Assembly (NCBI GenBank): GCA_002347155.1
Contig: DDXO01000120.1
Location: forward strand, 17,709 to 81,708
DNA: 64,000 bases
From: a candidate division WOR-3 bacterium UBA2258
Lineage (GTDB): Bacteria > Hydrothermota > Tepidihabitantia > Tepidihabitantales > Tepidihabitantaceae
Direction: 5' to 3'
A program made the position numbers and the translations under genes. Below, piece by piece: positions 22,702-59,177 of the stretch. Below the pieces are notes generated by a model. It was not told the DNA's origin, did not search any database, and was given only the letters and a program-made list of their open reading frames with translations. Every line of letters starts with the position of its first letter. Positions within the stretch are counted from its first letter, which is position 1.

Positions 22702-23129
22702 CGTACCTCCTCCGGCGCCGCCCGCGGCGGGAAAGCTACAAAACTACCCTACTGCCCCCCGGTCTAGCTGCCTCTACGGGGGTAGCAAAGGATATGCCGC
22801 CTCGGCCGGCTGTCAACAAAGTCGCAGCGCGGAATAGCGCGGAATCCGACCGCGCGGTTACGGTACCGATACTGGAGCCACAAGAGCACATCGTTGATGA
22901 AGCACGAATTCCGAAGTCCGCACTGCCCGACCGGGGCCACTGAGGTCAAGCTCGAATGCACCACGATCCCGAATTGCGCCTCGGGCTTCGGGCTTGAATC
23001 GTCACTCTGGTTTCGGACTTCGAGCTTGAACCTCGCTCCACTCGTGGCCGTCTACGTCGGATTCATGGCGGCCACGTTCCTTTGACTTCGCCAATCTTCA
23101 ACCTACAATCTGCAATCTGGAATGGCTCG

Positions 23130-23202
23130 GGCCGTTAGCTCAGTTGGAAGAGCACCTGATTTTTAATCCGGTGGCCGCAGGTTCGAATCCTGCACGGCCC
23201 AT
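23130..23202 (+). tRNA. tRNA-Lys (anticodon UUU)
   Basis: I folded it by hand. Acceptor GGGCCGT/ACGGCCC. D-arm GCTC-AGTTGGAA-GAGC. Anticodon arm CCTGA-TTTTTAA-TCCGG (one U.C mismatch), anticodon TTT. T-arm GCAGG-TTCGAAT-CCTGC. Discriminator A, no encoded CCA. Confidence 0.8.
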
Positions 23203-23280: not shown

Positions 23281-24552
23281 CTATGGCGTACGGGATTCGT
23301 GCGGGTGGGGTCGGGAACGCTCGCGCCTGTCGGCAGCTCGCCGGTCCGAAGCCGCCCTGAGTTGTGCGTTTTTCGTCGCCACGGTAGGCCGAACCCCGAC
23401 GCGCAGCCGGTCGAATCTGGAATACCGAACCTGTGGTGCAAAACCTCTCTGTCGCGGAGTTGCTCTGCCTTCGTCACCTGTGCGCTGATCGCGTGTTTCG
23501 TCTGGCTGGGCAATCCGCGCGCGCGCTTCCTGAGTCCTCACCACGGTCAGGTGTCCCAGACAGACAAGTAGTTGGAGGATGACGATGGCAGTCCTGCCGG
23601 CCGGGCCGACACGCAGATAGAATAGCGCCAGCGCCAACGAAACAAGGCCCAGACCGACATAAAAAAGCGTGACCCGCAGGTGGCTCCAGCCAGCCTGCAG
23701 GAGTCTCTCGTAGAGGTGTGTGCGGTGAGCCTGCCAGAACTTCTCGCCACGGAAGATGCGTCGCAGCAGCGTGTAGCTTGTATCGAACAGGAAGCTGCTG
23801 TAGAGAATGATGAAAAACACCATCGGTACCGACTGCCTGCCGGGCGCGGCCAGCCGGATTGCCAGCACCGACAGCACAAACCCTATTGTGAGACTGCCGA
23901 CGCCACCCATGAACACCTGGGCCGGAGGGAAGTTGTACCACAGGAACCCGAGGCAGGCCGCGGTAACGGCCACTGCAATCACGCCCTCGTACGGATGACC
24001 CGTGGCAAAGGCCGCCGCAGCGACGCCTGCGGAGTACACGACAGCCAGACTGTTCGCCAGCCCATCAGCGCCGTCGATGAAGTTGAAGAAATTCACCAGA
24101 CCCGTAATCCAGAGCACTGTCAGAGGAACTGCGGCCCACAGAAGCACGACACCGGACCCCCAAGGCAGTGAGAACTCCTGCAACACCATGCCTGCGCCAA
24201 CGACCAGCATGGCGGCTCCGGCCTGTAGGAGCAGTCGCAAGTAGGTGGGCGGGTTGCGGAAGTCGTCCCAAAGACCGACGGCTGCGACAAGCGCCGTGGC
24301 GACGGCGAAGAGGATGAGAGCCCCGCGTGGCTCCCCCTGGCTGCGCGCGCCAAGCATCAGAAGCAGGGCCAGGAAGAGCGATAGCGCAAGCCCGACACCG
24401 CCAGACGTCGCCGTTGGAATGTCGTGAGAACTGCGGCAATTGGGAACATCTATCGGTGCACCTCTGCCTACTCTCCCCAGAACAAGACGCGCACCTACGG
24501 TAGACACCGCAAGCGAAAACAAGCTCAGAACCAGTACTTTCAGTTCAAACAC
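23281..24552 (-). CDS. polyprenyl-phosphate sugar-1-phosphate transferase (glycosyltransferase family 4; WecA/MraY-like)
   Basis: Multi-TM protein with NFFNFIDGADGL (MraY/WecA signature). Confidence 0.85.
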   Translation of the reverse strand: MFELKVLVLSLFSLAVSTVGARLVLGRVGRGAPIDVPNCRSSHDIPTATSGGVGLALSLFLALLLMLGARSQGEPRGALILFAVATALVAAVGLWDDFRNPPTYLRLLLQAGAAMLVVGAGMVLQEFSLPWGSGVVLLWAAVPLTVLWITGLVNFFNFIDGADGLANSLAVVYSAGVAAAAFATGHPYEGVIAVAVTAACLGFLWYNFPPAQVFMGGVGSLTIGFVLSVLAIRLAAPGRQSVPMVFFIILYSSFLFDTSYTLLRRIFRGEKFWQAHRTHLYERLLQAGWSHLRVTLFYVGLGLVSLALALFYLRVGPAGRTAIVILQLLVCLGHLTVVRTQEARARIAQPDETRDQRTGDEGRATPRQRGFAPQVRYSRFDRLRVGVRPTVATKNAQLRAASDRRAADRRERSRPHPHESRTP

Positions 24553-25928: not shown

Positions 25929-26231
25929 ATGACTCTACCTGACATACCGATACCCAATCCTGCGGCAGTTCAGGAAGTGGGGGCTGACGGCTGGACCCTG
26001 CTGGTGAACCCGGACACCACCGGTGCGATGGCCGTGAACCAGACCGGGGCCCTTGTCTGGAAGCTGGTAGATGGCCGGCGTACGGCCGATGAGATTATTG
26101 CCGCGGTCCGAAGCCGCTTTCCGGATGCGCCGGACAACGTGGCTGAAGACGTGCGGGCACTTCTGACCAAGCTGGCCGACGAAGGGTTCGTCGGCCGGGA
26201 GATACCGCTTAAGGGGACACCTCATGAGTGA
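25929..26231 (+). CDS. PqqD-family peptide chaperone (RRE), type A, copy 1
   Basis: ...GWTLLVNPDTTGAMAVNQTGALVWKLVDGRRTADEIIAAVRSRFPDAPDNVAEDVRALLTKLADEGFV is the PqqD/RRE pattern. ~70% identical to 26498-26827. Confidence 0.8.
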   Translation: MTLPDIPIPNPAAVQEVGADGWTLLVNPDTTGAMAVNQTGALVWKLVDGRRTADEIIAAVRSRFPDAPDNVAEDVRALLTKLADEGFVGREIPLKGTPHE

Positions 26232-26508
26232 GAAGACCTATCGAGCAAACGAAGTCGTTTCTTGCGTTGACGAGGGCGAAGATGGGGCCATGCTCTATAA
26301 CCCGGACAAGGACGACACGGTCATCCTGAATCCCTCCGGCCGCAGCATCTGGGCCCTGCTGTCCGCCCCCCGAACTATTGACGAGATTGCAGGTCATCTC
26401 GTATCCGCCTATCCGAGCATCACGCGAGAGCAGGCACGGAAGGACGCGGAGCAGTTCCTAGAGTCTCTTGTCCCCGATTTCGCAACTCCCTCAACCGATG
26501 AGCACTGA
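26224..26508 (+). CDS. PqqD-family peptide chaperone, type B, copy 1
   Basis: ...AMLYNPDKDDTVILNPSGRSIWALLSAPRTIDEIAGHLVSAYPSITREQARKDAEQFLESL. Paralogue of 27060-27353. Overlaps its neighbours by 8 and 11 nt. Confidence 0.75.
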   Translation: MSEKTYRANEVVSCVDEGEDGAMLYNPDKDDTVILNPSGRSIWALLSAPRTIDEIAGHLVSAYPSITREQARKDAEQFLESLVPDFATPSTDEH

Positions 26509-26827
26509 GCCACTGCCAATCCCCGACCTGACCCTGCCCGACCCGCCGATGCCGAATCCATCCGCCGTCCGCGACGACGGGGAAGACGGCTGGACGCTCC
26601 TGGTGAATCCCGACACCGCCGGTGCAATGGCTGTGAATGCGACCGGCGTGCTCGTCTGGAGCCTCGTAGACGGCAAGCGTACTATCGAACAGATTGTTAC
26701 CGCGGTGAAGGACCGGTTTCCGGATGCGCCGGACACGGTGAGAGACGACGTGCTCGCATACCTGACGAAACTGACCGAGGAAGGCTTCATTGGTCAGGAA
26801 ATACCATTTCTAGACACGAATCGCTAG
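26498..26827 (+). CDS. PqqD-family peptide chaperone, type A, copy 2
   Basis: ATG 26498 overlaps the upstream stop (ATGAGCACTGA). GWTLLVNPDTAGAMAVNATGVLVWSLVDGKRTIEQIVTAVKDRFPDAPDTV... Confidence 0.8.
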   Translation: MSTEPLPIPDLTLPDPPMPNPSAVRDDGEDGWTLLVNPDTAGAMAVNATGVLVWSLVDGKRTIEQIVTAVKDRFPDAPDTVRDDVLAYLTKLTEEGFIGQEIPFLDTNR

Positions 26828-27059
26828 GAGCGCCGGGAGGCCATGGGAAGAGGGAAGAGGTGACATTGAGACCTTCCGCTGTCGGCGTACTCCGTGGTTT
26901 ACTAATGAGAGCAGGAAATGTTTGTCATTCTGAGGCGTTCGACGCCGAAGAATCTGACAACAAGCGAAGGGCTCAGGGTGACAGGGTATAGGGATACTGA
27001 GAGTGACATCAAGAACTGTCCAGTGTTTCATGCTCTCCGTAATATAAGGAGCTAGACCA

Positions 27060-27353
27060 ATGAACAAGACTACATATCGAGTGAACGAAGTCGTGTCCTG
27101 CGCCGACGAGGACGAAGACGGAGCGATGCTCTACAATCCGGACAAGGATGAAACGGTGTTGCTGAATCCCACCGGCCGCAGCATCTGGGCTCTGCTTGGT
27201 GCCCCTCGGACCCTCGACGAGGTCGCCGACCACCTGACGGCTACCTATCCGGGCGTGACAAGTGAACAGGCTCTGCAGGATGCCGACAAGTTCATCCAAT
27301 CGCTGCTGCCGGATTTCGTACTATCCGAAGGTGGGGACGCTGATGCCCGCTAA
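27060..27353 (+). CDS. PqqD-family peptide chaperone, type B, copy 2
   Basis: MNKTTYRVNEVVSCADEDEDGAMLYNPDKDETVLLNPTGRSIWALLGAPRTLDEVADHLTATYPGVT... RBS AAGGAG. Confidence 0.75.
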   Translation: MNKTTYRVNEVVSCADEDEDGAMLYNPDKDETVLLNPTGRSIWALLGAPRTLDEVADHLTATYPGVTSEQALQDADKFIQSLLPDFVLSEGGDADAR

Positions 27354-28521
27354 GAAAGCGCGAAAGGCGAAGGTAAACCCGGCACCTCAGCCGATGCCGG
27401 ACATGACCGTGCCGCCGCCGGGTCTCATGCGATTTCCCAAGTCGGTTGACCTTTCGCTCACTGGACGCTGCAACCTCAAGTGCCGCTACTGCTTCTACGC
27501 CGACGAGATGACCGCGCTCAATGACATGCCGGCGGAGCGCTGGCACGCCTTGTTCGAAGAACTCAGCAGGCTTGGTGTTCACAATGTCTGCCTCTCGGGC
27601 GGTGAGGTCTTCACCCGCCCCGACCTGTTTGAGCTGATCGATGGTGTAATCGCGAACAAAATGCGCTACAACATACTCACCAACGGCACGCTCATCACCG
27701 AGGACACGCTGGAGGAATTCGCGAAGGGCAAGCGCCGTCTGAGGCTGAGTTCAGTCCAGGTTTCAATAGATGGGTCCTGCGCCGAGATTCATGACAAGAG
27801 CCGGCCCCCGAAGAGCTTCGACCGGGCCCTGCGCGGCCTCCGTCTGCTCAAGCAGGCCAAGTTCCCGGTGACCGTGCGCGTGACCGTCAACCGGGCTAAC
27901 GTGAACGACCTGCCCAACATCGCCCGACTGCTGCTCGAGGATGTGGGTCTTGGCGCGTTCAGCACGAACGAGGCTGACCAGATGGGTTCTGCCCGGTGCT
28001 ATGGCGACAGCACAGTCCTCACTCGCTCCGAGCGAAAGCAGGCGATGGAGACTCTGGCGAGGCTGAACAAGCAATACGGAGGCAGAATCAGCGCCACTGC
28101 CGGACCACTTGCCACGGCTACAAACTTCGCCCAGATTGAGGAGGCAATCGCGCAGGGGAAGACCGGCATGCCAGGCCGGGGTACCCTGTGTTCCTGCGGC
28201 GGGGTTTTCCAGAAACTGGCTGTACTCCACGACGGAACAATCGTCCCCTGCAATATGCTGCCCAAGCTCGTCATGGGCGTCTACGGTCACCAGTCACTCG
28301 CCGAGGTCTGGCGCAACAGCCCTGCGGTCAATGTCGTTCGCTACCGGCGCCAGATACCAATACTGTCGTTGCCCGAGTGCAAGGACTGCTCGTACGCCGG
28401 TTTCTGCACTGGCGGCTGCCCGGCCTCGGTCATGGCCAAGTTCGACAGGTTGAACGCCCGTGACCCTCTAGTCTGCTACCGCATCTTCAAAGGAGAGGAG
28501 AAACAAAGTGTCGATATGTGA
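27343..28521 (+). CDS. radical SAM / SPASM-domain peptide-modifying enzyme 1
   Basis: CNLKCRYC (CxxxCxxC) rSAM cluster. C-terminal SPASM cysteines CSCGG...PCN...CKDCSYAGFCTGGCP. Start ATG 27343 overlaps the upstream stop. Confidence 0.9.
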   Translation: MPAKKARKAKVNPAPQPMPDMTVPPPGLMRFPKSVDLSLTGRCNLKCRYCFYADEMTALNDMPAERWHALFEELSRLGVHNVCLSGGEVFTRPDLFELIDGVIANKMRYNILTNGTLITEDTLEEFAKGKRRLRLSSVQVSIDGSCAEIHDKSRPPKSFDRALRGLRLLKQAKFPVTVRVTVNRANVNDLPNIARLLLEDVGLGAFSTNEADQMGSARCYGDSTVLTRSERKQAMETLARLNKQYGGRISATAGPLATATNFAQIEEAIAQGKTGMPGRGTLCSCGGVFQKLAVLHDGTIVPCNMLPKLVMGVYGHQSLAEVWRNSPAVNVVRYRRQIPILSLPECKDCSYAGFCTGGCPASVMAKFDRLNARDPLVCYRIFKGEEKQSVDM

Positions 28522-29686
28522 GCCGGTCCCCAGTCCCCAGTCCCCAGTCCCCAGTCCCTTAGACCTACCTGAGGGTGTACCGGCTTTGCGGGCGTTCTAT
28601 CTCTACATGTCCAATACCTGCAACCTCCGTTGTCGCCACTGCTGGATAACGCCGGGATTCGGCGACGGCAAGGAGACGCCAGGCGATTTTGTGGACCCCG
28701 AGGCGCTGCGTCAAGCCGTGGTCGAAGCCAAACCGCTCGGGCTTTGCTCGGTGAAGCTGACCGGTGGCGAACCGATGCTCCATCCCCGTTTCATGGAAAT
28801 CGCGGACCTGTTGACGGCGGAGGGGATGCACATGGACATGGAGACCAATGGCACCCTCATGACCGCTGAGAAGGCGCGTCATCTGAAAGAAAAGACGAGT
28901 GTCACATTCATCTCGGTCAGCCTGGATGCACCTGACGCCCGCTCGCACGACAGCTTCCGTGGAGTACCCGGCGCGTTCGACGCAGCCGTGCGCGGGCTCG
29001 ATTGCCTGGTGAACGCCGGGTACAGAAACTGCCAGGTTATCATGAGCGTTCACAAGGGCAATCGCCACCAGGTCGAGGAAGTTGTCGCTCTTGCCGCAGC
29101 CCATGGTGCAAATTCGGTGAAGTTCAACCCGGTCACCAGGACCGGCCGGGGCGCGGCAATGGAGGAAAGCGGCGAGGTAATGGACTACGACGAGCATCTC
29201 GCCTTTGCGCGGTATGTGTCAACCGAGCTACGTCCGAAAGCCCGGGTTGGAGTCATCCTCAATATGCCCCCGGCCTTGTCATCGATGCGCGACCTCTTGC
29301 GTACCCACGGCCGGACCGGTGACTGCGGTGTTTTGCGCATCCTTGGGGTATTGGGGAATGGCGACATCGCCCTGTGTGGCATCGGCCGGACAGTCCCGGA
29401 ACTGGTCTACGGGAAACTCGGCCGCGACAGCATTCGCGACATCTGGTTCTCCAACCCGACGATCCTCGGTCTGCGCCGAGCCCTGACGGACGTTGATGCG
29501 CTGCCGCTCCCCTGCGCCAAGTGTCTGTTCGTGAGGACATGTCGCACCGGGTGCGTGGCGAACAACTACACGGAAAGCGGGTCGTTGATTGCGCCGACCT
29601 GGCTGTGCGCGGAGGCTGAACGCCGCGGCGTCTTCCCGGGCAAGCGAGCGCAGAGAAGGACGTCTGGGGGCGAAAGAAAGGGATAG
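28508..29686 (+). CDS. radical SAM / SPASM-domain peptide-modifying enzyme 2
   Basis: CNLRCRHC; SPASM CGIGRT...CAKCLFVRTCRTGCV. GTG start overlaps rSAM-1 by 14 nt. The N-terminus contains the (CCCCAGT)4-encoded PVPSPQSPVPSP. Confidence 0.9.
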   Translation: MSICEPVPSPQSPVPSPLDLPEGVPALRAFYLYMSNTCNLRCRHCWITPGFGDGKETPGDFVDPEALRQAVVEAKPLGLCSVKLTGGEPMLHPRFMEIADLLTAEGMHMDMETNGTLMTAEKARHLKEKTSVTFISVSLDAPDARSHDSFRGVPGAFDAAVRGLDCLVNAGYRNCQVIMSVHKGNRHQVEEVVALAAAHGANSVKFNPVTRTGRGAAMEESGEVMDYDEHLAFARYVSTELRPKARVGVILNMPPALSSMRDLLRTHGRTGDCGVLRILGVLGNGDIALCGIGRTVPELVYGKLGRDSIRDIWFSNPTILGLRRALTDVDALPLPCAKCLFVRTCRTGCVANNYTESGSLIAPTWLCAEAERRGVFPGKRAQRRTSGGERKG

Positions 29687-29840
29687 ATGGATTCCGCGCC
29701 AGTGGAACACGAAAACGGAATGAAACGTGGACATGTGGAATCCGTCACGCATTCATTTAGTGCCCCTGGCCTCGGCTGCCCCTGTCCGACAGTGCGTGCT
29801 TTCGTGGCTCCAGTGTCGGATTCAGGAGAACGGGTTTTGC

Positions 29841-29870
29841 TTGACATGGAGGGCAGGGGGGGTGTAGAAT
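29841..29870 (+). promoter_or_regulatory. sigma70-like promoter upstream of precursor A (TTGACA-N18-TAGAAT)
   Basis: ttgacatggagggcagggggggtgtagaat, ~60 nt upstream of the precursor A start codon. This is the only consensus-like -35/-10 pair I saw in the cluster. Confidence 0.4.
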
Positions 29871-29929
29871 GATGTCGCCTACCAACCAGAGAGGGCTACA
29901 GGTCCGATAAAGTACTTAGGAGGTTAGTG

Positions 29930-30190
29930 ATGCCAGAAAAAGACGAGTCCAAGTATGACGCTCCGAGAGCAGTGCGGCTTGTTGATGCTGCGAGCGCACG
30001 GGGCAGTTGTTATTCCGGGGACACTCCCGGTGAAAGCTGCTACGACGGTAGCAACGACGTGTCGTGCAATACAGGTACCGGTGCACAGGCTTACTGCGTC
30101 AACAATGGCAGTAATGCCGCCGGCTGTGACGTAGGCAACTCTCCTGCGGTGAAGGGCTGCGAAGCAGGCCTCGGAGTCCACGCGCTGTAG
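29930..30190 (+). CDS. RiPP precursor peptide A (86 aa; leader about 1-23, core with 6 regularly spaced Cys)
   Basis: MPEKDESKYDAPRAVRLVDAASA|RGSCYSGDTPGESCYDGSNDVSCNTGTGAQAYCVNNGSNAAGCDVGNSPAVKGCEAGLGVHAL. AGGAGG RBS is 6 nt upstream. Shares the leader motif YDAPRAxRLxDxAxA-RG with 32214-32498. Confidence 0.7.
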   Translation: MPEKDESKYDAPRAVRLVDAASARGSCYSGDTPGESCYDGSNDVSCNTGTGAQAYCVNNGSNAAGCDVGNSPAVKGCEAGLGVHAL

Positions 30191-30198
30191 CAGAAGCC

Positions 30199-30265
30199 AA
30201 GGTCCTGTCGTCCGAAGCGGCAGACAGAGAACCTGCCTGGGTGTCCATGTAGGATGACAGGACCT
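30199..30265 (+). other. stem-loop downstream of precursor A (aaggtcctgtcgtcc ... ggatgacaggacct)
   Basis: 10-14 bp stem, no U-tract; possible transcript-stabilising or attenuating hairpin. Confidence 0.3.
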
Positions 30266-30396
30266 CGGACGGACGGAGCCTCGCAGTCTTGGCGCGGAAC
30301 GGAAACGAAGAACGCTGTTGTCTCTCGTTCATTTCGTGATGTGGGCTTGGCTGTGCAAGCTGAGGCACACGCAGCGGGCGGCTAGAAGGAAAACGC

Positions 30397-32202
30397 TTGG
30401 TGTCCAGAACTGAGCAATCCCAGGTTTCGCAGCGCCCTTTGAGACTAGAACTGGCTGACGGCAGTCGGTGGACGATTATCGGTGCGGACGAGCCGTCAGT
30501 CCTCGTAGTGTCAGAACTGGGCAAAACCATGCGCCTTATGCCCGGCGCTGTGGGTCGCGAGCTGTACGCAGTCGTGTCTTGTGACAGACATCACGACCCG
30601 CAGAAGCCGAGCCGGAACGGCGCGGCTGTGTGCTGGCTTTCCCCGTTGCTCGATCGAAGCCTGCAGATCATCCAGATGGAGAGAATCGCGAAGTTGATTG
30701 CGTTGGAGTCTCTATCGCAGGGCGGTTTGCTTCTCCACTGTGCACTGGCCGAGTACAAGGGAGCTGGCTACGTGATGGCCGGACCCAGCGGAGTCGGCAA
30801 GAGCACCGCCAGCAATCGACTTCCGCTGCCCCATCGTTCGCTATGCGACGACCGGACCCTCGTCGTGCGAGACTCCACCGGCCAGTACTGGGCGCATCCC
30901 TGGCCGACTTGGAGCCAGTTGCACGACGGGAGAGACTCTTCGTGGCCGGTCGAAAACGCCGTCCCACTGCGGGGAATGTTCTTTCTCGGCCAATCCGCGT
31001 CTGTGCGACTCCAGCCGACAGGCCGGACGCAAACGACTGCTCTGATAATGGAATCGGCATTCGACCTTATCCTGGCGATCGCGAGGCTGTCCGAAGTCAG
31101 CGCTTCCACGAAACTCTGGGAAAACCACCTTGGTGCGGCCAAGGCTCTGGCTGCCGCAGTGCCGGCCTATTCACTTGAGATGAGCCTTGACGGCGAATTC
31201 TGGAATGAGATAGAGCAGGTACTGACCGTTATCGGCGATGACGGGGCCAGACAACCGCCTCCCGGCAAGCAGCAGTCCTCGCTCGACTTTCTCCGTGCCG
31301 GTGCACACAACTCCGAGGCGTTCCCGTCAGAAACGGGCGACGGCAGGCTGCGCGCCGTCTGTCTGGGAAGCGCCATGAACCTGACGCTGGCGGAAGCTGA
31401 CATACTCGAAGTCGAACCCTACGGCCGGCGCCGGGTTCGTCCGGGAGACGTCGTCTGCTTCATGTCTCCCGAGAATGCTGAGACGTGTGTGCGGCGTGTC
31501 GTGTCAGTCGAGGGTCGAGGGACGAGGGACGAAGGACTGCGGGACGCAATCCTGACGCGCGGTGACAACAACCCAAACAATGACCCGTGGCTCTTACGGA
31601 GCGAGGACATTGTCGGACGGGTTGTCGCCGCGCGACGCGGCTCTCGCCGGCGACCGATAGACGGAGGTCTGAGGGGACGGATGACAGCCGTACTGCTGCG
31701 CGGCCTGTGGTCGTTACGAGCATTCGGCCAAAGGGTACCTCTTCGTTTGCGGGAGGTTGCCATTAGAGTTGGCTCGCTCGAAGGCGCGCTTCCTCAGTAC
31801 CTCAGGCCCCGGCTGGTGAAGTTCAACGGACGCCACTGGGTGAAACTCAAGCTGCTGCTCGCCGAACGAGAGATCGGACGTTACGACTGCTATGCTCAGG
31901 CGTGGCGTGTTCGGCAGCCGTTTCGTATGTTGCTGGACCTGAGCAAGTTACCGGGGCGATCGATATGGAGCCGTGCCAACTTAGCGGGGGCGCGTCTGCG
32001 ACCCGCACGAAGGCACGAGGAGAACGGTCTGCTGACGGCGTCCAGGACGGCCTTTGCGGCCGGACGCGGTGATTCAGCGAAAAGAGATCCAACAGAATCG
32101 TCGGGCAGTGCCCGGCGACAGAGAAGTGCCAACCGCGCCGCCTCGACCATCGTCGAGGCGGCGGTCGAATTCGTGACCAGTGAACCGGAGAACATACCTT
32201 AA
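30397..32202 (+). CDS. HprK-related kinase (P-loop GPSGVGKST) fused to a catalytically inactive S26/signal-peptidase-like domain
   Basis: N-terminal half ...LHCALAEYKGAGYVMAGPSGVGKSTASN resembles the HPr kinase C-terminal domain. The C-terminal half aligns with the S26 peptidase at 34891-35685 (ILEVEPYGRRRVRPGDVVCFMSPE, TRGDNNPNNDPW), but it has GSAMNLTL where the paralogue has GPSMNPTL and RRV where the paralogue has HRV. Confidence 0.75.
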   Translation: MVSRTEQSQVSQRPLRLELADGSRWTIIGADEPSVLVVSELGKTMRLMPGAVGRELYAVVSCDRHHDPQKPSRNGAAVCWLSPLLDRSLQIIQMERIAKLIALESLSQGGLLLHCALAEYKGAGYVMAGPSGVGKSTASNRLPLPHRSLCDDRTLVVRDSTGQYWAHPWPTWSQLHDGRDSSWPVENAVPLRGMFFLGQSASVRLQPTGRTQTTALIMESAFDLILAIARLSEVSASTKLWENHLGAAKALAAAVPAYSLEMSLDGEFWNEIEQVLTVIGDDGARQPPPGKQQSSLDFLRAGAHNSEAFPSETGDGRLRAVCLGSAMNLTLAEADILEVEPYGRRRVRPGDVVCFMSPENAETCVRRVVSVEGRGTRDEGLRDAILTRGDNNPNNDPWLLRSEDIVGRVVAARRGSRRRPIDGGLRGRMTAVLLRGLWSLRAFGQRVPLRLREVAIRVGSLEGALPQYLRPRLVKFNGRHWVKLKLLLAEREIGRYDCYAQAWRVRQPFRMLLDLSKLPGRSIWSRANLAGARLRPARRHEENGLLTASRTAFAAGRGDSAKRDPTESSGSARRQRSANRAASTIVEAAVEFVTSEPENIP

Positions 32203-32213
32203 GGAGGTACGAC

Positions 32214-32498
32214 ATGGATAATCAGAAGAGCCCGGAGCCGAACGAGCGCGTTCGCTCTGGATATGATGCACCACGTGCCCAGAGACTGAGCGACGTGGCA
32301 CCGGCACGCGGCGATGACTGCGGTCCAGGCAACGCCGCAGATCCTGGGCAATGCAGTGGCAACGGCAGTGCTGCTCAGAATACCTGCACCAATGGCGGCC
32401 AGGCGGTTGCCTGCAAGGACAACGGCAACATAGCGACTCTCTCGTGTTATGGCGGGAGTGGCGCAACCGAGTGCGGTAACGGAAACTCAGCCATATAG
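32214..32498 (+). CDS. RiPP precursor peptide B (94 aa; leader about 1-31, core with 6 regularly spaced Cys)
   Basis: MDNQKSPEPNERVRSGYDAPRAQRLSDVAPA|RGDDCGPGNAADPGQCSGNGSAAQNTCTNGGQAVACKDNGNIATLSCYGGSGATECGNGNSAI. AAGGAGG RBS overlaps the kinase stop codon. Confidence 0.7.
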   Translation: MDNQKSPEPNERVRSGYDAPRAQRLSDVAPARGDDCGPGNAADPGQCSGNGSAAQNTCTNGGQAVACKDNGNIATLSCYGGSGATECGNGNSAI

Positions 32499-32982: not shown

Positions 32983-34845
32983 ATGGATTCACAACCAGCA
33001 GAAGACTCGCGACCCGGGATGGTCGAGACCCTGAAACAGGGTCTGCATCTGGGTCGCGCGCTTCGTCTCGTCTGGTCCATCGCTCCGGGCTGGGCGGTGA
33101 TGAACCTTGTCCTGGTTTTCGTGCAGGGATTCATGCCTCTGCTTGCACCCTACTTCATGAAGCGCACCATCGATGCCCTGCAGGCCGCCATGGCGATGCA
33201 GACCGGCCTTACCGCCTTTCGCCCGGTCCTATTCTGGGTCATTCTTGCCGCCGCGGCAGCGTTACTGTCAGCGCTGCTTAACTCATTCTCCGGGCTGGCC
33301 GGCCAGTACCAGTCCATGGTTTTTTCCGACAAGGTGACCGACATTGTGCACAGCCAGTCGGTCGCGGTTGACCTTGAGTACTACGAAAATCCCAGCTACT
33401 ACAACACCATGCAGCGAGCTCAGGTCGAGGCACATTCCCGGCCCATCGGTGTTGTCAACCGCCTCGTCACCATCGGCAGGAGCATGGTTTCGCTCGTCGG
33501 GGTCGCCGGCTTGCTCCTCGCTTTCAATCCGCTGGTCGCACTGGCCCTCTTCTGTGTGGCCTTGCCCGGAGCGCTTGTGCAGTCGGTCTTTGCGCGCCGC
33601 CAGTACCGCCTTGAACTGGCGCAGACCGAGAAAGAACGCCAGGCGTCATACTATCACTTCATGCTGACCGGTTCGTGGTTTGCCAAGGAACTGCGGTTGT
33701 TCAACCTGGGGTCTTTGTTTCGGACCCGGTTCCAAGGCCTGCGTCAGCAACTACGCGGAACGAGACTGGCCTTGTCCCGGCGGCGCACCGTTGCCGGTCT
33801 GCTGGCCGGGTCCCTGACCTCAGGGGCTATCTTCGGCTCCCTGGCCTTCGTTGCCTATCAGGCCTACCTGGGGAAAACCACGCTCGGCAGTCTCGTGATG
33901 TACTACTCCATTTTCCAGCTCGCAGTCGGCTCATTCTCGAGCGTACTGAGCGGAGTGGCCGGACTCTACGAAGACAACCTCTTCCTCACCAATTTCTACA
34001 AATTCATGGACCTGAAGCCGCGGGTCATGGTGCCGGCGAGTCCGGCCCCGACTCCGACCCGAATCAGTCAGGGCGTCGCGTTCCATGACGTGCACTTCGC
34101 GTACCCGAGCGACTCCCGGACGGTGCTGGATGGGGTCAACCTGAATATCGCTCCGGGCCAGGTTGTTGCGCTGGTTGGCGCAAACGGCTCTGGCAAGACC
34201 ACGCTGGTTAAGCTCCTGTGCCGGCTCTACGACCCGGACTCGGGCACTATCACTGTTGACGGCACCGACCTCCGACGTCTGGACCCGGTGGGATGGCGCC
34301 GGAAAGTCAGCGTCATCTTGCAGGACTATGTTCAGTATGGCATGACAGCCTGGGAGAACATCTGGATGGGCGACGCGGAAAGAGAGCCGGACCGGAGCCG
34401 AATCACCCGGGCGGCCGAACTCTCCGGCGCTGACTCGGCAATCAGGAAACTGCCCCAGGGGTATGACACTCCGCTGGGCTTTCAGTTCAAGCGCGGCCGG
34501 GAGCTGAGCATCGGCGAGTGGCAGAAAGTGGCTCTGGCTCGTGCGTTCCTCCGCGATTCGGAACTGGTCGTCCTGGACGAGCCCACCAGCTCACTCGACC
34601 CTTTGGCCGAGGCCGAGGTATTCGACCACTTCCGACGAGCTATACGGGGCAGAAGCGCGGTGCTCATCAGCCATCGCTTCTCCACCGTGAAGATGGCCGA
34701 CTACATCTATGTCCTCGACCACGGTCGGGTCGCGGAGTCCGGCACCCACCAGGAACTCTTCGACCGGGGCGGCCTCTATGCCCATCTCTACTCAGTCCAG
34801 GCCGCCCGGTATCAGGCCCAGCCAACAGACCAGCGTGCAGGCTGA
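32983..34845 (+). CDS. ABC exporter, fused permease/ATP-binding protein
   Basis: N-terminal 6-TM domain. Walker A GANGSGKTT, signature LSIGEWQKVALARAF, Walker B LVVLDEPTSSLD. Confidence 0.9.
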   Translation: MDSQPAEDSRPGMVETLKQGLHLGRALRLVWSIAPGWAVMNLVLVFVQGFMPLLAPYFMKRTIDALQAAMAMQTGLTAFRPVLFWVILAAAAALLSALLNSFSGLAGQYQSMVFSDKVTDIVHSQSVAVDLEYYENPSYYNTMQRAQVEAHSRPIGVVNRLVTIGRSMVSLVGVAGLLLAFNPLVALALFCVALPGALVQSVFARRQYRLELAQTEKERQASYYHFMLTGSWFAKELRLFNLGSLFRTRFQGLRQQLRGTRLALSRRRTVAGLLAGSLTSGAIFGSLAFVAYQAYLGKTTLGSLVMYYSIFQLAVGSFSSVLSGVAGLYEDNLFLTNFYKFMDLKPRVMVPASPAPTPTRISQGVAFHDVHFAYPSDSRTVLDGVNLNIAPGQVVALVGANGSGKTTLVKLLCRLYDPDSGTITVDGTDLRRLDPVGWRRKVSVILQDYVQYGMTAWENIWMGDAEREPDRSRITRAAELSGADSAIRKLPQGYDTPLGFQFKRGRELSIGEWQKVALARAFLRDSELVVLDEPTSSLDPLAEAEVFDHFRRAIRGRSAVLISHRFSTVKMADYIYVLDHGRVAESGTHQELFDRGGLYAHLYSVQAARYQAQPTDQRAG

Positions 34846-34890: not shown

Positions 34891-35685
34891 ATGACTGAGG
34901 GACAGCAGCGGACGGCAGGCCCCGGGAAGGGAGAACCAGATGCGCTTGCTTCGAACAGGCCGGGCTGGACGGCCGACTTCCCTTCGGTTGAGTCAATCGT
35001 AGTCGACGGTCGGCGGCGCGTCGTCTATACCGGGCCCAGCATGAATCCGACCCTGCGCGTGCCGGACATCCTGTGGGTAGAACCATATGGGAAAAGGCCT
35101 GTACGAGCCGGAGATGTCGTCTGCTTCGCGTCGCCTGAGCTTGACACCAACATCGTACACCGCGTCATCTCCGTCCGTCCTTCGTCCCCAGTCCCTGGTC
35201 CCTCGTCTCCCGTCTCCGGTCTCCGGTCTTCCGTCCTCGGTCTTCCGTCTCCGGTCGCCATCCGGACGCAGGGCGACAATAACCCATTGGCCGACACCCG
35301 GGTTCTTGCGCCTGCTGACCTATTGGGGCGGGTAGTGGCGGCGCAGCGCGGCACGCGGCTCCGTTCCATCCATGGTGGCCACGCCGGCCTGATGGTCGCT
35401 TGGAGTGTAAAGCTGGGAAAGGCGATCTGGGGGGTCGTTGCCGGCGTCGCGAGCGCCGTCTACCAGAGCCTCATCCAGGGAAGTCGGTTTGGCTTCCTGC
35501 TGCCCGGCGGCCTGAGACCCAGACTGGTCTCCTTCAAAGGACGTGACGCACCGATCTTCAGGGTGCTTATGGGCGGTCGGACGGTCGGACACTATGACTA
35601 TCGCTACCATCAGTGGCACATCCGGCGACCATTCCGCTTGTTCGTGGACGAACGTACCCTACCCGACCCGAAGTCCAAGGACTAG
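34891..35685 (+). CDS. signal peptidase I-like S26 peptidase, SipW/Sec11 (Ser/His) type, probably the leader peptidase
   Basis: GPSMNPTL (box B Ser) and IVHRVISV (box D His) both intact; RTQGDNNPLAD box. In-frame insert of CCGTCT-family repeats (PSSPVPGPSSPVSGLRSSVLGLPSPV) at 35170-35258. Confidence 0.75.
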   Translation: MTEGQQRTAGPGKGEPDALASNRPGWTADFPSVESIVVDGRRRVVYTGPSMNPTLRVPDILWVEPYGKRPVRAGDVVCFASPELDTNIVHRVISVRPSSPVPGPSSPVSGLRSSVLGLPSPVAIRTQGDNNPLADTRVLAPADLLGRVVAAQRGTRLRSIHGGHAGLMVAWSVKLGKAIWGVVAGVASAVYQSLIQGSRFGFLLPGGLRPRLVSFKGRDAPIFRVLMGGRTVGHYDYRYHQWHIRRPFRLFVDERTLPDPKSKD

Positions 35686-35732: not shown

Positions 35733-37055
35733 ATGACTAGCGCGGTTGAGACACTGTTCCAGTACCTCTGTCCTAAGTCCCCCGTCCCTCGTCCCCCGTC
35801 CGACCAGGAACCTGAAACCAGTGACTTGGTACTTCATCCGTCCAACCAGGAACCTGAAACCAGTGACTTGGTACTTCATCCGTCCAACCAGAAACCTGAA
35901 ACTAGTAACCAAGAACTTTTGGGCGTTGACTGGAACGCCGTCATCGACACGGCTGCCCACAACAGCCTCGAGCCGCTGCTGTTCAAGCGTCTCAAAGAGA
36001 GCGGCACGCGGGCCTATGTCCCAGCAGGCTCCTGGGAAAGGCTGCGACAGGCCTACTTCAGCAGCGCCCAGAAAAACCTGCACCTCTATCGAGAACTCCG
36101 GCCGGTACTTCGCCGCCTGCGCGACTCCGGCATCCCGGTGATTGTCCTGAAGGGGGCCTTTCTGGCCGAGGCGGTTTACGGCGACGTCGCACTCCGGCCG
36201 ATGTGCGACGTCGACCTCATGGTACCGAAAGCAGAGCTGCCGAAAGCCCAGACAATCCTGCTCGACATGGGCGGCGTTCAGAAGGACCCCACAGGAAACG
36301 AGGCGTTCTGGAGGGAACACCACCACCCTCCGCCGACCTACCTCCGCGACCTCTCCATTGAGCTTCACTGGACCATCGCCGACCCCACCGGGCCCGTCAA
36401 AATAGACCCTGCCGGGCTCTGGTACAGGGCGCAACGAGCTACGATAGCGGGCGTCGAACTGCTGGCGTTATCCCCTGAAGACCTGTTGGTCCACCTCTGT
36501 GTGCACTTCGGCGGTGAACACCATCTCAACGGATTGCGCTCCTTCTGCGACATCACTGAGACTATTCGCCTCCGCGGCGGAGACATGGACTGGCAGCAGG
36601 TCGTAGACTCGACTCGCGAGTGGCTTGCTGCAAGATACGTAGGCCTGACACTCCATCTCGCCCGACGCCTGGTGGGCGCGGGCGTACCGGATGATGTGCT
36701 TGAACGGTTAGTCCCCGGTGGCATTGACGAGCACGTACTGGAATTGGCGAGGCAGCTCGTACTTGCCGACACCGGTTATGCCCCGTGGTCACCGGTTTCC
36801 GGCCTCGTAGGCGCCAGGTCATTCAATGACAAGACAAAGCTGCTGTGGCAGCGGGTCTTCCTTTCACGTGACGAAATGGCCAGGGTCTATCCCGGCTCTC
36901 GCGAATCGCGCTTTCTCTGCCGCTACTACGCGCTGCGGGTCAGGGATGTCATACGGAATCGTGGGGCGACCGTAGTGAAGCTGGCCAGGAGTCCTGACTT
37001 CGCAGAGAGCACTACGGAGAGTGCGGTCGTGGCCAACTGGCTGAGATCCGGGTAG
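35733..37055 (+). CDS. nucleotidyltransferase family protein (NTP_transf_5-like, as found in lasso/sactipeptide clusters)
   Basis: ...GIPVIVLKGAFLAEAVYGDVALRPMCDVDLMVP... The ORF N-terminus is encoded by a 45-bp tandem repeat (EPETSDLVLHPSNQ x2.5); the true start may be downstream of the repeat. Confidence 0.7.
   Translation: MTSAVETLFQYLCPKSPVPRPPSDQEPETSDLVLHPSNQEPETSDLVLHPSNQKPETSNQELLGVDWNAVIDTAAHNSLEPLLFKRLKESGTRAYVPAGSWERLRQAYFSSAQKNLHLYRELRPVLRRLRDSGIPVIVLKGAFLAEAVYGDVALRPMCDVDLMVPKAELPKAQTILLDMGGVQKDPTGNEAFWREHHHPPPTYLRDLSIELHWTIADPTGPVKIDPAGLWYRAQRATIAGVELLALSPEDLLVHLCVHFGGEHHLNGLRSFCDITETIRLRGGDMDWQQVVDSTREWLAARYVGLTLHLARRLVGAGVPDDVLERLVPGGIDEHVLELARQLVLADTGYAPWSPVSGLVGARSFNDKTKLLWQRVFLSRDEMARVYPGSRESRFLCRYYALRVRDVIRNRGATVVKLARSPDFAESTTESAVVANWLRSG
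35805..35905. repeat. 45-bp tandem direct repeat, ~2.5 copies
   Basis: ccaggaacctgaaaccagtgacttggtacttcatccgtccaac x2, then a degenerate partial copy. Confidence 0.75.
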
Positions 37056-38285: not shown

Positions 38286-39560
38286 CTAGTGGACTACCCT
38301 CCGGTCGAGCGTAGCGGCGACGTGTTCAATGTGCCTGACCATGGCTCCGTACACCTTGTCGGGATGGAGCTCAGTTTCATAAAGCCGAATCGCCTGTCTC
38401 CGCATCTCCGCGAGCCGCGACGCGTCCGCAGCGAGGTCCGAGATAGTGCGGGCGAGAACCTCCGGGGCACGATTGGGGTAGGTGACCCCGCAGCCAGAGC
38501 GCCGCAGCAATTGCTCAAGCGAGCCCTCCACGCTCGACAGAATAGGCAATCCCGCAGACAAGTACTCAATCACCTTGATTGGATAGCTTCTGACCAAAGA
38601 ATATGTGCTTGCGTACGGAACAAGCCCGACGGATGCCAGGCGCAGGAGGGCCCAAATCTTCGCCCGGTCCACCCAGCCGGGCAGCATCACATTCTGGCAT
38701 TCGCGAGCCAGATTGCGGTAGTACTCAAGACTGTCGCCGGTCCCGCAGAGCACGAACCTGCATTTGGGGCAACTCTCTCTCAACTGCCGGGCGGCCAGAA
38801 TAACTGCATCGAGGTCAAGCAGCCGGCGCGTTCCCAGGCTGCCGGCCAAGCACAGCACGAAGTCCGATTCGCGCAGACCACGGGAGTGCCAGTATCCTCG
38901 GGCCTCGGTGAGCTGGGCATCGGTGGGAGTCCACGTATCGTTGGCCAGCGGGAAGCTCCCATCCAGTTCCGACACGTCCCTGCCGGCGCAGGACGCGCCC
39001 CATTCAACAAATGCCGGCGTAATCCCCAGCAGCCCGGTGGCCTTCCGACATGCCTGGGCTGCCATCCTGAAGTAGGGAGTCAGGGCAACCCTGCCGATGC
39101 CCCTGAGCCAATCCGGGACAACGTCCAACATGACTCTTGGCCACAGGTCCCTTATGTCCAATACAACCGGCACGTCCCTCTCTCTCCCGTACCGCGTCGC
39201 CTCATAGCTCATGTCGAGGGTCGGGAACGAACAGACGATGACATCAGGCCTGGCCTCGGTCCGGGCGTACCTGCGAAACTTGCGGCCGATAAGCCAGTGG
39301 TTCACAACTCGCGCGACCGAGACATTCTTGCTGTACGATGTCGCGTGCAGCAGCCGGTAGGCAAGCTGCGGGCTCACGTCAACTCGCGAGTCCCTGTCGG
39401 CCTCGTGCCGCTTTCGCGCGTGGTCGAAGGTCGAACCCCACCAGAGCACGTGATGACCGGCTTCCATCAGGTGGTCGGCGATGTTGCCCGCACGGAACCT
39501 CCGATCTTCCGGATGGAAGTAGGGAAGGGGATCGCCGATGTCGATCAGCCAGACGCGCAT
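38286..39560 (-). CDS. glycosyltransferase family 4
   Basis: MRVWLIDIGDPLPYF...; C-terminal E-x7-E-like region ...YPIKVIEYLSAGLPILSS. Confidence 0.85.
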   Translation of the reverse strand: MRVWLIDIGDPLPYFHPEDRRFRAGNIADHLMEAGHHVLWWGSTFDHARKRHEADRDSRVDVSPQLAYRLLHATSYSKNVSVARVVNHWLIGRKFRRYARTEARPDVIVCSFPTLDMSYEATRYGRERDVPVVLDIRDLWPRVMLDVVPDWLRGIGRVALTPYFRMAAQACRKATGLLGITPAFVEWGASCAGRDVSELDGSFPLANDTWTPTDAQLTEARGYWHSRGLRESDFVLCLAGSLGTRRLLDLDAVILAARQLRESCPKCRFVLCGTGDSLEYYRNLARECQNVMLPGWVDRAKIWALLRLASVGLVPYASTYSLVRSYPIKVIEYLSAGLPILSSVEGSLEQLLRRSGCGVTYPNRAPEVLARTISDLAADASRLAEMRRQAIRLYETELHPDKVYGAMVRHIEHVAATLDRRVVH

Positions 39561-39785: not shown

Positions 39786-40511
39786 CTACGGTTGGTTGGG
39801 GGCCATTTCCTCAACTGTAGAGGCCTTGGCTGCGTCGTTGAGGACACGGCGCGACTCCGGCCCGCAGTTGAAGAGCAGGTCTATGGCTGCGAGATTCGGG
39901 ATGAACGGTTCGCCCTGCTGGGCGTAAACCGGGTGAGCCAGCCGCACAAACCGGTGGTGAAGGCCCTGCCTCCGGAACTCCTCCACATCTACGTAGGACT
40001 TCCCACCCCAGCCTGAGACGTAGGTGTCGCATCCTGCCTTTCGGCACATGTCGATGAGCATCGCCGTCTTCTCACCAGTGACATTGCACTGCGAGCTACT
40101 CAGAACCTCCTTCTCTATGCCGAAGCACTTCATCAGGTAGTGCGTTATGGCGAGGCTGAGGTCAACGAGACGCGGCGAGGCCTTCGTATAGACCTCCTCG
40201 AAGAAACCGCGGTGGTCCTCGAAGAAAGGCGCATTGTGGTAGTTGAGGGATATAGTCCGCCAGTGCTTCCGCGCCCAGGGCAGGGAGTTATCTATGAGTA
40301 CTTCGTCCGTCCTCTGGTAGAACCTGCCTTTGGTCAGCACGGGGACGGTCAGGAGAATCCGGTCGGTGCGGCCGCGAACGTAGTTCCGATTCTGGAACAG
40401 CTTCTTTTCAAACTGCGCGTGGTCCACGAACATGAACTTGTCGCACTGGGTCATCTTATAGAAAACGCCGAGATAGGGCAGGTACGCGGGTTGGTGGCCG
40501 GCGAGTTTCAA
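39786..40511 (-). CDS. WbqC-family protein
   Basis: MKLAGHQPAYLPYLGVFYKM... is the WbqC N-terminal signature (cf. 57015-57770). Confidence 0.7.
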   Translation of the reverse strand: MKLAGHQPAYLPYLGVFYKMTQCDKFMFVDHAQFEKKLFQNRNYVRGRTDRILLTVPVLTKGRFYQRTDEVLIDNSLPWARKHWRTISLNYHNAPFFEDHRGFFEEVYTKASPRLVDLSLAITHYLMKCFGIEKEVLSSSQCNVTGEKTAMLIDMCRKAGCDTYVSGWGGKSYVDVEEFRRQGLHHRFVRLAHPVYAQQGEPFIPNLAAIDLLFNCGPESRRVLNDAAKASTVEEMAPNQP

Positions 40512-40514
40512 GAC

Positions 40515-41258
40515 TCAAGCTCCCGCATCCCGGACGCCCGAGTTGCCGTCCTGCGGCTGCGCCGGCCCGTGCCGGTCGGATTGACCCGGGCGTCCACTGG
40601 TCCTGAATACCAGCCGGGACACCTCAAAGCACTCGGCGTACTCGGCCCCGATCTGCACGCCACGGGTACGTGCCAGCGAGCGGATGAACTGCTCGTCGAC
40701 ATACTCCCGCCCCAACTGCGACACGTAGCACCGGAGCGCCCGCAGCTTGGCGTCCATGTGCCGGGCCTCAAGGAAGAAGAAAGCGTTCGTGCTGAACGAG
40801 AGGTTGTTCCAGGGCACTTCGTAGCCGAGGATGGTTGTCTTCTTGAATGCCCGGAAGCCCTCCTGGGCTACAACCTGGTGGTCCTGGTGCGTGTCGGTGG
40901 AGCTGGGGAGGAACACCAAGTCCGGCTCGATCCTCCGGTTCAATTCCACCAGCCGTTCAAGTATCTGCTGTCGGAATTCCGGGAAGCGCCGCACCGGGAA
41001 GCGTTCGACCACGAGGTGCCTTTCGTCAAGAGCAAGCTCGCGCGTTGCCTTTACGACTTCGTCTGCGAGCACGTCGCGCGGCAGCCCGGCCGGCACCGAA
41101 TCCTCGGCTATCGACAAGGCCGCGTAGTGCACATCCGAGCCGTCCTCAATCAGCCGCGCAATCGTCCCGCCGCATCCGAACTCTCCGTCGTCAGTATGGG
41201 GCGCGAGAACAAGCACTCGGTCTGCAAACATGGTTTCAGACCTCCTTTCCTGTAACAT
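40515..41258 (-). CDS. PIG-L/LmbE family deacetylase
   Basis: VLVLAPHTDDGEFGCGGT and HQDH motifs. Confidence 0.8.
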   Translation of the reverse strand: MLQERRSETMFADRVLVLAPHTDDGEFGCGGTIARLIEDGSDVHYAALSIAEDSVPAGLPRDVLADEVVKATRELALDERHLVVERFPVRRFPEFRQQILERLVELNRRIEPDLVFLPSSTDTHQDHQVVAQEGFRAFKKTTILGYEVPWNNLSFSTNAFFFLEARHMDAKLRALRCYVSQLGREYVDEQFIRSLARTRGVQIGAEYAECFEVSRLVFRTSGRPGQSDRHGPAQPQDGNSGVRDAGA

Positions 41259-58978: not shown

Positions 58979-59177
58979 GTGTTCACCTTGACCTTAGCCT
59001 TGACCTTAACCTGCCGAGAGGCAGTGGTTGAGGTTGAGGCGGCCGACCAGGCTGAGGTTGAGGTGAAGTCTGAGACCCCGGTCCTCGGTCATCCGTCATC
59101 CGTCTTCCGTCACCGGTCATCGGTCCTCCGTCATCCGTCTTCCGCCCTCCGTCACCGGTCATCCGTCTTCCCATCCT
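58925..59177. repeat. intergenic spacer composed of two hexamer-repeat families (GGTTGA/CCTTAA type then CCGTCA/CCGGTC type)
   Basis: ccttgaccttagccttgaccttaacctg...ggttgaggttgaggcggccgaccaggctgaggttgaggtgaag; then tccgtcatccgtcttccgtcaccggtcatcggtcctccgtcatccgtcttccgccctccgtcaccggtcatccgtcttcc. Confidence 0.8.

Follow-up and report, generated by a model that had tools for sequence, protein, structure and literature searches.

Two conserved types of free PqqD-fold adaptor, each encoded twice, in a SynChlorMet-type peptide cluster of a candidate division WOR-3 bacterium

Why would a single biosynthetic locus encode four small leader-binding adaptors of two different types, and which enzymes would each type serve? 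The question is raised by a 64,000-nucleotide (nt) stretch of DNA from a candidate division WOR-3 bacterium (contig DDXO01000120.1 of assembly GCA_002347155.1, positions 17,709-81,708), here called the window, whose own coordinates are used throughout. As an earlier note on this DNA had described, the + strand at 25929-29686 carries six open reading frames (ORFs): four PqqD-fold proteins, i.e. free RiPP recognition elements (RREs), in the order A-B-A-B, followed by two radical S-adenosylmethionine (rSAM) enzymes. Judged from its genes, the locus is a SynChlorMet (SCM)-type cluster for peptides that are made on the ribosome and modified after translation (RiPPs), and its predicted products are Cys-rich modified peptides. 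The answer that we favor, with belief and doubt in about equal measure, is a division of labour in which the type B adaptors would serve the rSAM enzymes ScmE and ScmF, and the type A adaptors would serve the kinase-like protein ScmC and the associated peptidase. The six genes, and the spacer that lies among them, are as follows.

25929..26231, + strand: A1, PqqD/RRE protein of type A, copy 1 (100 aa; PF05402, 64.7 bits; A-type hidden Markov model (HMM) 156 versus B-type 48)
26224..26508, + strand: B1, PqqD/RRE protein of type B, copy 1 (94 aa; PF05402, 49.4 bits; B-type HMM 146 versus A-type 33)
26498..26827, + strand: A2, PqqD/RRE protein of type A, copy 2 (109 aa from the ATG; PF05402, 61.8 bits)
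26828..27059, no strand: spacer between A2 and B2 (232 nt)
27060..27353, + strand: B2, PqqD/RRE protein of type B, copy 2 (97 aa; PF05402, 50.4 bits)
27343..28521, + strand: ScmE-type radical SAM/SPASM enzyme, rSAM-1 (392 aa; TIGR04250, 389.2 bits)
28508..29686, + strand: ScmF-type radical SAM/SPASM enzyme, rSAM-2 (392 aa; TIGR04251, 339.9 bits)

Haft's SCM cassette of TIGRFAMs/NCBIfam was defined by comparative genomics and comprises ScmC (TIGR04249), ScmD (TIGR04248), ScmE (TIGR04250) and ScmF (TIGR04251). We know of no experimental study of this cassette, a literature search by family name and model accessions found no paper on it, and to our knowledge no precursor had been identified when the family was described. 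The family is large, with at least 1937 ScmE clusters at E<=1e-40, and is widespread in anaerobic bacteria and methanogens. In the window, the best NCBIfam matches for the enzymes are ScmE, ScmF and ScmC, and the SCM components are contiguous on one strand (25929-32202). Specifically, rSAM-1 matches the ScmE model just below its cut-off of 400 bits (next family 130.8), rSAM-2 matches the ScmF model, again below a cut-off of 400 bits, with the next family at 133.6 bits, and cross-matches of each enzyme to the other's model stay below 100 bits. Proteins that are 84-93% identical to the window ScmE are named ScmE by JGI. The two rSAM genes, which the earlier note took to be a duplicated pair, match different equivalog families and are only 26% identical. 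As in the SCM definition, two different PqqE-like rSAM/SPASM enzymes, PqqD-family protein(s) and ScmC share one operon; the family definition, however, holds a single PqqD homolog (ScmD), whereas this locus has two conserved types, each present twice.

All four small proteins score above the PF05402 (PqqD) cut-off (49-65 bits versus 23.4). ScmD is the best or second-best NCBIfam family for each of them, at scores that do not reach the 100-bit ScmD cut-off (A1 59.2, A2 61.9, B1 32.4 and B2 31.5 bits). Local identities are 67% for A1/A2, 70% for B1/B2 and 30-35% between the types, in agreement with the two pairs of paralogues seen before, for which about 70% had been estimated within type A. The length of A2, 109 aa, is the same in public gene calls, and ScmF begins at a GTG preceded by the Shine-Dalgarno-like sequence AAAGGAGAGGAG. 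Four stop/start overlaps join these genes, as the earlier note had seen, but they are not of the ATGA style that it gave them, measuring 8 nt (A1/B1), 11 nt (B1/A2), 11 nt (B2/ScmE) and 14 nt (ScmE/ScmF). The translational coupling that had been read from them is plausible on sequence grounds for B and ScmE: in many phyla ScmE has an in-frame start that lies 11 nt ahead of the B stop.

The generality of the two types emerged from a survey of 80 loci encoding ScmE relatives, one genome per species, whose ORFs were scanned with the A-type and B-type HMMs. At strict HMM thresholds, 30 of these loci, plus the window, have A and then B as the genes directly upstream of ScmE-ScmF; the number is about 35 when thresholds are relaxed or contig-edge cases are counted. 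These loci span WOR-3, Chloroflexota, Desulfobacterota, KSB1, Bacteriovoracaceae and the archaea Methanoregula and Methanomicrobiales, which argues that the two-type arrangement is ancient and conserved. The earlier note's proposal of two distinct free RRE types is borne out by this synteny, and the chance it raised that B is a decayed copy is not: each type has its own invariant residues, B is the more widely conserved of the two, and its omega values (the ratio of nonsynonymous to synonymous substitution rates) of 0.13-0.17 likewise mark B as non-degenerate on sequence criteria. Other cassettes are built differently. Some hold B only (L021, L033 and L078), others place a di-PqqD protein before ScmE and ScmF (L022, L029 and L031), and in 20 of the 80 loci an RRE is fused to the ScmE N-terminus; 11 of these 20 encode a protein of about 200 aa with a B-like C-terminal half just before ScmF. 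When the profiles are compared with hhalign, B groups with all of these "core" domains (scores 114-201) and A is the outlier (92-119), which suggests that type B represents the core ScmD-like lineage. A and B are anciently diverged types that probably stem from an old duplication and would since have specialised. In the literature searched, where the paper on LPP peptides cited below was the sole relevant find, neither the two conserved free RRE types nor their fusion-based assignment to different enzymes is described.

Single-PqqD cassettes with a protein intermediate between A and B were also seen (L052 9669-9980, L056 9671-9976, L076 9603-9962, L080 9654-9962 and L047 880-1236). In this protein the N-terminal half is B-like (NPDVVLREED-DG-LLFNPDT), the C-terminal half is A-like (F-DVPE-V-V-F-GFIG), and the two HMM scores are about equal; it may represent the ancestral state before the A/B split.

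Both types retain the means to grip a leader peptide. When the A and B profiles were compared with a structural database, LppB, from the linear polyphosphorylated peptide (LPP) system discussed below, ranked first or second for each among true RRE structures. Its leader contacts N33, D70, Y60 and M78 correspond to N37, D74, F64 and L82 in A, which are invariant or near-invariant, and to N36, D74, Y63 and L82 in B. The contacts kept are an Asn on strand β3, an Asp on helix α3 and the hydrophobic pocket residues, which hold the leader Tyr and Pro. Their retention in A and B alike suggests that both should bind a single YxxP motif, presumably in turn. Asking which adaptor is lasso/LPP-like and which is rSAM-like by family or PDB similarity was uninformative, A being at least as close to LppB as B is; by NCBIfam matches alone, A resembles PqqD and GeoRSP adaptors and B resembles lasso and HPr-rel-A adaptors.

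In the scheme that we propose, a precursor with a YxxP leader and Cys repeats would be processed by ScmE, ScmF, the kinase-like ScmC-S26 fusion and an S26 leader peptidase, and would then be exported. The enzymes of this locus have no leader-binding domain of their own (ScmE lacks an N-terminal RRE, its rSAM domain starting at residue 38), and the two free PqqD-fold adaptors would do that job. Type B, which would be translationally coupled to ScmE, would present the leader to the rSAM enzymes, and type A would present the same leader to ScmC and, via ScmC, to the peptidase module, so that A and B would bind one YxxP motif in turn. We infer this pairing of adaptor with enzyme, as we do the kinase activity of ScmC and the modification chemistry, from several lines of observation. 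A search that used the fusion of L074 as query yielded 25 protein clusters of PqqD-ScmC fusions, and in every one of the 25 it is the A-type HMM that gives the PqqD domain its highest score (39-112 bits versus 16-39 bits for the B-type). This recurrent fusion of A-like domains to ScmC rather than to an rSAM enzyme speaks against the earlier note's reading of two different RREs per rSAM enzyme. The AlphaFold2 (AF2) model of one such fusion is confident despite a disordered linker (predicted local distance difference test score 87.9; predicted template modelling score, pTM, 0.88), from which the adaptor is predicted to dock on the kinase-like domain, whose fold is PEPCK/HPrK-like. PqqD-ScmC fusions also occur with no rSAM gene nearby, once beside a precursor. 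B or its core relatives, for their part, always stand immediately 5' of an rSAM gene with no RRE of its own: where ScmE does carry one, the B-like domain lies directly upstream of ScmF, and the ScmE-fused RRE is itself closer to B than to A by hhalign (129 versus 108). The cassette of L089 combines these features, with a free B-like PqqD (B 86, A 53), ScmE, ScmF and an A-like PqqD-ScmC fusion (A 41, B 21); B alone remaining free when A is fused to ScmC is expected if A is the adaptor of ScmC and B that of the rSAM enzymes. The gene-content correlation of A with ScmC or S26, also tried, gave no discrimination, ScmC-like and S26 genes being found in all cassette types.

Several observations weigh against this division of labour. 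Only a single full cassette, L089, shows the state with A fused and B free, to which the more complex L074 can be added. By HMM score, the ScmE-fused RRE is weakly assigned to B (A 31-62, B 40-70 bits). Of the 150 best relatives of B1 from 1.84 billion proteins searched, about 49 carry two PqqD domains (di-PqqD proteins), the N-terminal one divergent and the C-terminal one B-like, and these fit equally well with two adaptors acting as one unit. In five others of the 150, the partner to which a B/core-like domain is fused is an S26 peptidase and not an rSAM enzyme, and one more is a di-PqqD-HprK-like protein. In a mirror-tree comparison, crude and statistically weak, the partial correlation is 0.52 for A-B, 0.09 for A-ScmC and 0.006 for B-ScmE, although the A-B correlation is also expected if both adaptors bind the same leader. 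In two loci every tailoring enzyme comes with an RRE to itself: in L074 (7500-15160) one cassette holds five PqqD domains, one of them fused to ScmC, and in L092 (484-7815) a PqqD-ScmC fusion is followed by PqqD-sulfotransferase fusions.

Downstream of ScmF the order continues with precursor 1, ScmC-S26, precursor 2, the exporter, the second S26 peptidase and a nucleotidyltransferase.

29927..30190, + strand: precursor peptide 1 (leader YDAPRAVRL; six-Cys core)
30397..32202, + strand: ScmC-S26 fusion (601 aa; TIGR04249, 148.2 bits)
32214..32498, + strand: precursor peptide 2 (leader YDAPRAQRL; six-Cys core)
32983..34845, + strand: MsbA-like ABC exporter (ABC_tran, 112 bits; MsbA-related models)
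34891..35685, + strand: stand-alone S26 peptidase, S26b, of archaeal/SipW type (PF10502, 24.6 bits; cut-off 22.9)
35733..37055, + strand: NTP_transf_5 nucleotidyltransferase (PF14907, 213.6 bits)

The two precursors belong to a family with 3-7 tandem Cys-x-x-Gly repeats of about 10 residues, which the literature searched does not describe and which no NCBIfam or Pfam model matched in general profile scans of the window precursors. ORFs related to them follow ScmF in many loci (L002-L076). All of the 24 precursors compared have a YxxP leader, typically (K/R)YEAP(R/K)AVRL; the first Cys falls 18-20 residues after the leader Tyr in 22 of them, 83 of 86 Cys-to-Cys distances are 8-11 residues, and Gly stands at Cys+3 in 75 of 110 cases. 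Each window precursor has six Cys in its core, at spacings of 8-10 in precursor 1. Their leaders share the YDAPRA core motif and the downstream RL-D-ARG residues and differ at the position between these two, where the Gln of precursor 2 is unique among the 24. The likely start of precursor 1 is the ATG at 29930, which AGGAGG precedes. About 60 nt upstream of this precursor lies a sigma-70-like promoter (29841-29870; TTGACA, 18 nt, TAGAAT; 11 of 12 matches), which suggests that precursor 1 may have a promoter of its own inside the cluster. In a separate locus (L088, 7390-9293), a precursor-like ORF of 106 aa, Cys-rich and with YxxP, sits directly upstream of a PqqD-ScmC fusion, with no rSAM gene within 8 kb.

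ScmC itself is matched by TIGR04249 over residues 88-276, above the cut-off of 125 bits; a protein identical to it carries a precomputed PF27840:ScmC match, and its close homologs are so annotated by JGI and NCBI. It is an HPr-kinase-like P-loop protein, as seen in weak HprK_rel_A/B matches and the P-loop GPSGVGKST. The S26 domain of the fusion (TIGR02228, sigpep_I_arch, 40.9 bits) reads GSAMN for G-x-S-M-x-P-T, with Ala for Ser, and VRR for VHR, with Arg for His, and the same losses are found in the ScmC-fused S26 domains of L001 and L002. With the catalytic Ser and His gone, this domain looks like a pseudo-peptidase. S26b, in contrast, keeps the GPSMNPTL, VHR and GDN motifs, with Ser, His and Asp intact. 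It is found only in the window and L001, and ScmC-S26 fusions in genomes without S26b keep the catalytic residues. The S26 genes, which the earlier note regarded as mirrored duplicates, are therefore not equivalent. Its two parallel maturation lines are tenable only in part: the precursor, A and B are doubled, but ScmE, ScmF, ScmC, the exporter and the nucleotidyltransferase are single, and one S26 domain is apparently dead; what it called a duplicated chaperone-enzyme set is duplicated in its chaperones and not in its enzymes. A conserved C-terminal domain of about 100 aa ends ScmC-S26 and also follows the S26b domain; compared by hhalign as a possible hidden RRE, it gave a probability below 1%.

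The A-B-A-B doubling itself is found, among the 80 related loci, only in the window population and in L001, a sister species whose ScmE is 93% identical and which has the same four adaptor genes; the literature searched holds no description of such a lineage-specific doubling with one dead and one live S26. The order A1-B1-A2-232 nt-B2-ScmE recurs in an independent public contig (L084), and this contig, together with the four genes of L001, shows that the order is no artefact of assembly. Purifying selection acts on each of the four copies: against the L001 orthologs, omega is 0.06 for A1, 0.17 for B1, 0.20 for A2 and 0.13 for B2 (0.08 for ScmE and 0.18 for ScmF), at 0.22-0.63 synonymous substitutions per synonymous site (dS) for the four adaptors. 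The paralogues are far older, with dS of about 0.9-1.3 for A1/A2 and B1/B2. In the trees, the A2 proteins of the window and L001 form a clade with the A of L002 (bootstrap 100), their B2 proteins form one with the B of L002 (bootstrap 98), and A1 and B1 fall with the single pairs that other WOR-3-like genomes carry. L003 (3687-4535) pairs an A1-like A with a B from the B2 clade (bootstrap 92) across a 225-nt spacer, as though B1-A2 had been deleted from an ancestor with four genes. The A-B-A-B order thus represents two long-diverged adaptor pairs retained in one WOR-3-like lineage, and it is consistent with an older set of four genes, some of them later lost, or with two cassettes having merged, but not with a recent tandem copy.

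The spacer between A2 and B2 holds an insertion of about 144 nt (~26896-27046) that is absent from L001 and L002, whose spacers are about 88 nt. A structured RNA and a mobile element were looked for in this spacer without success: it has no Rfam match, its fold z-score of -1.19 is not significant, and blastn found no second copy of the insertion in the window or in loci L001-L080. Three public contigs with an identical ScmE start at 26803, 26927 and 27016, either within the spacer or in the final 24 nt of A2; another three stop no more than about 100 nt past A2. These breaks suggest population heterogeneity or an assembly-breaking feature.

The chief competitor to the division of labour is an obligate hetero-oligomer in which A and B would form one composite adaptor serving all enzymes, its stoichiometry fixed by translational coupling. 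The A-then-B order is kept, and of 30 junctions 13 overlap by 1-11 nt and nine more have gaps no longer than 40 nt; single chains with two PqqD domains are common among the relatives of B1 and occur in three loci of the survey; and A-B is the strongest residual co-variation. An AF2 model of one di-PqqD protein shows two confident RRE folds, and its top full-length Foldseek match is ThcOx, a protein with two tandem RRE-like domains. The pTM of this model, 0.62, nevertheless gives no confident inter-domain packing, the ThcOx match has a root-mean-square deviation (rmsd) of 15 Å, and the N-terminal di-PqqD domain is not clearly A-type (A 0-46 bits). Also hard to reconcile with an obligate complex are the ScmC fusions that contain an A-like domain but none of type B, some of them with no rSAM gene close by, the B-only cassettes (L089 included), the mixed pair of L003 and the full set of leader-contact residues in both types, by which neither looks like a mere structural partner. 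We consider an obligate complex unlikely; a division of labour and an A-B heterodimer are, in any case, not mutually exclusive.

Why the pairs are doubled in this lineage is a separate matter, for which a role in telling the two precursors apart is possible, if doubtful. In such an arrangement A1/B1 and A2/B2 would be leader-specific sets, each feeding one precursor into the single shared enzyme set, with insulation at recognition only. Doubling co-occurs with two precursors of differing leaders, L005 has two precursors with near-identical leaders and a single A/B pair, and in two species purifying selection acts on every one of the four adaptors; moreover, RREs that discriminate near-identical YxxP and WxxP leaders are documented (PMC13381572). 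The pattern is, however, confined to one lineage, the window population and L001; the two leaders have YDAPRA and RL-D-ARG in common; L003 has a mixed pair and L002 only the A2/B2 type; and the second S26 is no parallel enzyme but the only catalytically intact one. The earlier note had instead suggested tandem duplication of a whole PqqD-A/PqqD-B/rSAM module followed by rearrangement, a view to which two of each gene class in a row and the similar A1/A2 and B1/B2 divergences would lend themselves. It is scarcely credible, given that ScmE and ScmF match different curated families and that A1/B1 and A2/B2 fall in different clades that include other genomes. ScmE and ScmF are, furthermore, present once each in essentially every related cassette with a single A/B pair, which indicates that these two ancient, distinct enzymes predate the adaptor doubling and took no part in it. 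Very improbable, too, is an extra pair that is a redundant, decaying leftover or an assembly artefact: three public assemblies do break in the A2-B2 spacer, and its 144-nt insertion is unique, but the L084 contig bridges A1 through ScmE, L001 has the same four genes, and an omega of 0.06-0.20 per copy at the dS given above does not fit decay. Taken together as one picture, an adaptor relay with a leader-matched second A/B pair for two insulated precursors, or alternatively a true heterodimeric free RRE, is put forward tentatively, as something we would sooner doubt than assert.

The locus can be set beside several known systems. The LPP systems of Bacillota (LppA/B/K/S/D/N; Popov et al. 2026, PMC13381572) use a discrete RRE by which a YxxP leader is brought to an S26 peptidase of archaeal type, and the core is phosphorylated by an HprK-like kinase; they have been reported only in Bacillota (PMC13381572). 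The locus shares with them the discrete RRE, the archaeal-type S26, the HprK-like protein, an NTP transferase (likened by description), the MsbA-like exporter and a YxxPx[V/L]-type leader motif, its YxxP being present in all 24 precursors, and both are embedded among polysaccharide genes, LPP in capsular polysaccharide loci (PMC13381572). LPP differs in having one RRE, no rSAM enzyme and cores without Cys repeats, with phosphorylation as the primary modification and no other core-modifying enzymes, whereas this locus has two rSAM/SPASM enzymes, two RRE types and a kinase-like protein fused to an apparently inactive S26 domain. The whole accessory gene set and the leader logic are those of LPP and paeninodin-type systems. 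Lasso B1 proteins (TbiB1, TfuB1/FusB1 and PbaB1) and PqqD are alike in their winged-helix fold and YxxP-type leader logic, the A profile matching TbiB1 at 2e-8 and PqqD at 3e-5 and the B profile TbiB1 at 2e-5 and TfuB1 at 4e-5, but those systems use a single RRE. Profile scans of the proteins scanned between 21940 and 42150 gave no match to the lasso macrolactam synthetase (C) or the B2 cysteine protease; PqqB and PqqC were not found by NCBIfam profile scan, nor was any of PqqA/B/C by the profile scans of the cluster, and the PQQ models stay below cut-off (PqqD 19-42 bits versus 46; PqqE 61-98 bits versus 381). The cyanobactin oxidase ThcOx resembles the di-PqqD relatives of B1 in carrying two RRE folds in one chain; it differs in that these are fused to an enzyme, whereas A and B are free proteins from two overlapping genes, and the domain orientations do not match, as the rmsd above reflects.

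Relative to the SCM definition, a precursor family with a YxxP leader and CxxG repeats is now assignable and ScmC is here fused to an apparently dead S26 domain, so the SCM family gains a candidate precursor and a link to the LPP/lasso phosphorylation machinery. The scheme amounts to a testable rule, in which one leader would be shared among four enzymes via two specialised adaptors; if true, it would make partners in multi-enzyme RiPP clusters easier to predict and would aid pathway engineering by adaptor swap. A heterodimeric RRE, should that prove true instead, is not described for free RRE proteins.

ScmE and ScmF also invite comparison with the ranthipeptide and sactipeptide maturases PapB, AlbA and StsB, which install thioether cross-links on Cys-rich cores and whose models they match weakly (83-105 bits). 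Both groups pair rSAM/SPASM enzymes with precursors of regularly spaced Cys, but the maturases named generally work singly and have an N-terminal RRE to themselves. Within the ScmF coding sequence, 18 nt from its start, lies a perfect heptanucleotide repeat, GTCCCCA, in 4.7 copies (28526-28558), which encodes PVPSPQSPVPSP; one unit gained or lost would shift the frame of ScmF. The repeat is absent from the L001 ScmF, and its length does not vary across three public contigs. Imperfect heptamer arrays are also present at 35177-35256, inside S26b, and at 59079-59171.

The NTP_transf_5 gene contains, in its 5' part, a 42-nt tandem repeat (35796-35906; 2.6 copies, 95% matches). Polysaccharide-type genes stand on both sides of the cluster, with a GT4 gene at 23281-24552 on one side and a GT1 gene (38286-39560), a WbqC gene (39786-40511) and a PIG-L gene (40515-41258) on the other, and a tRNA-Lys (TTT) gene is located at 23129-23201, on the side of A1.

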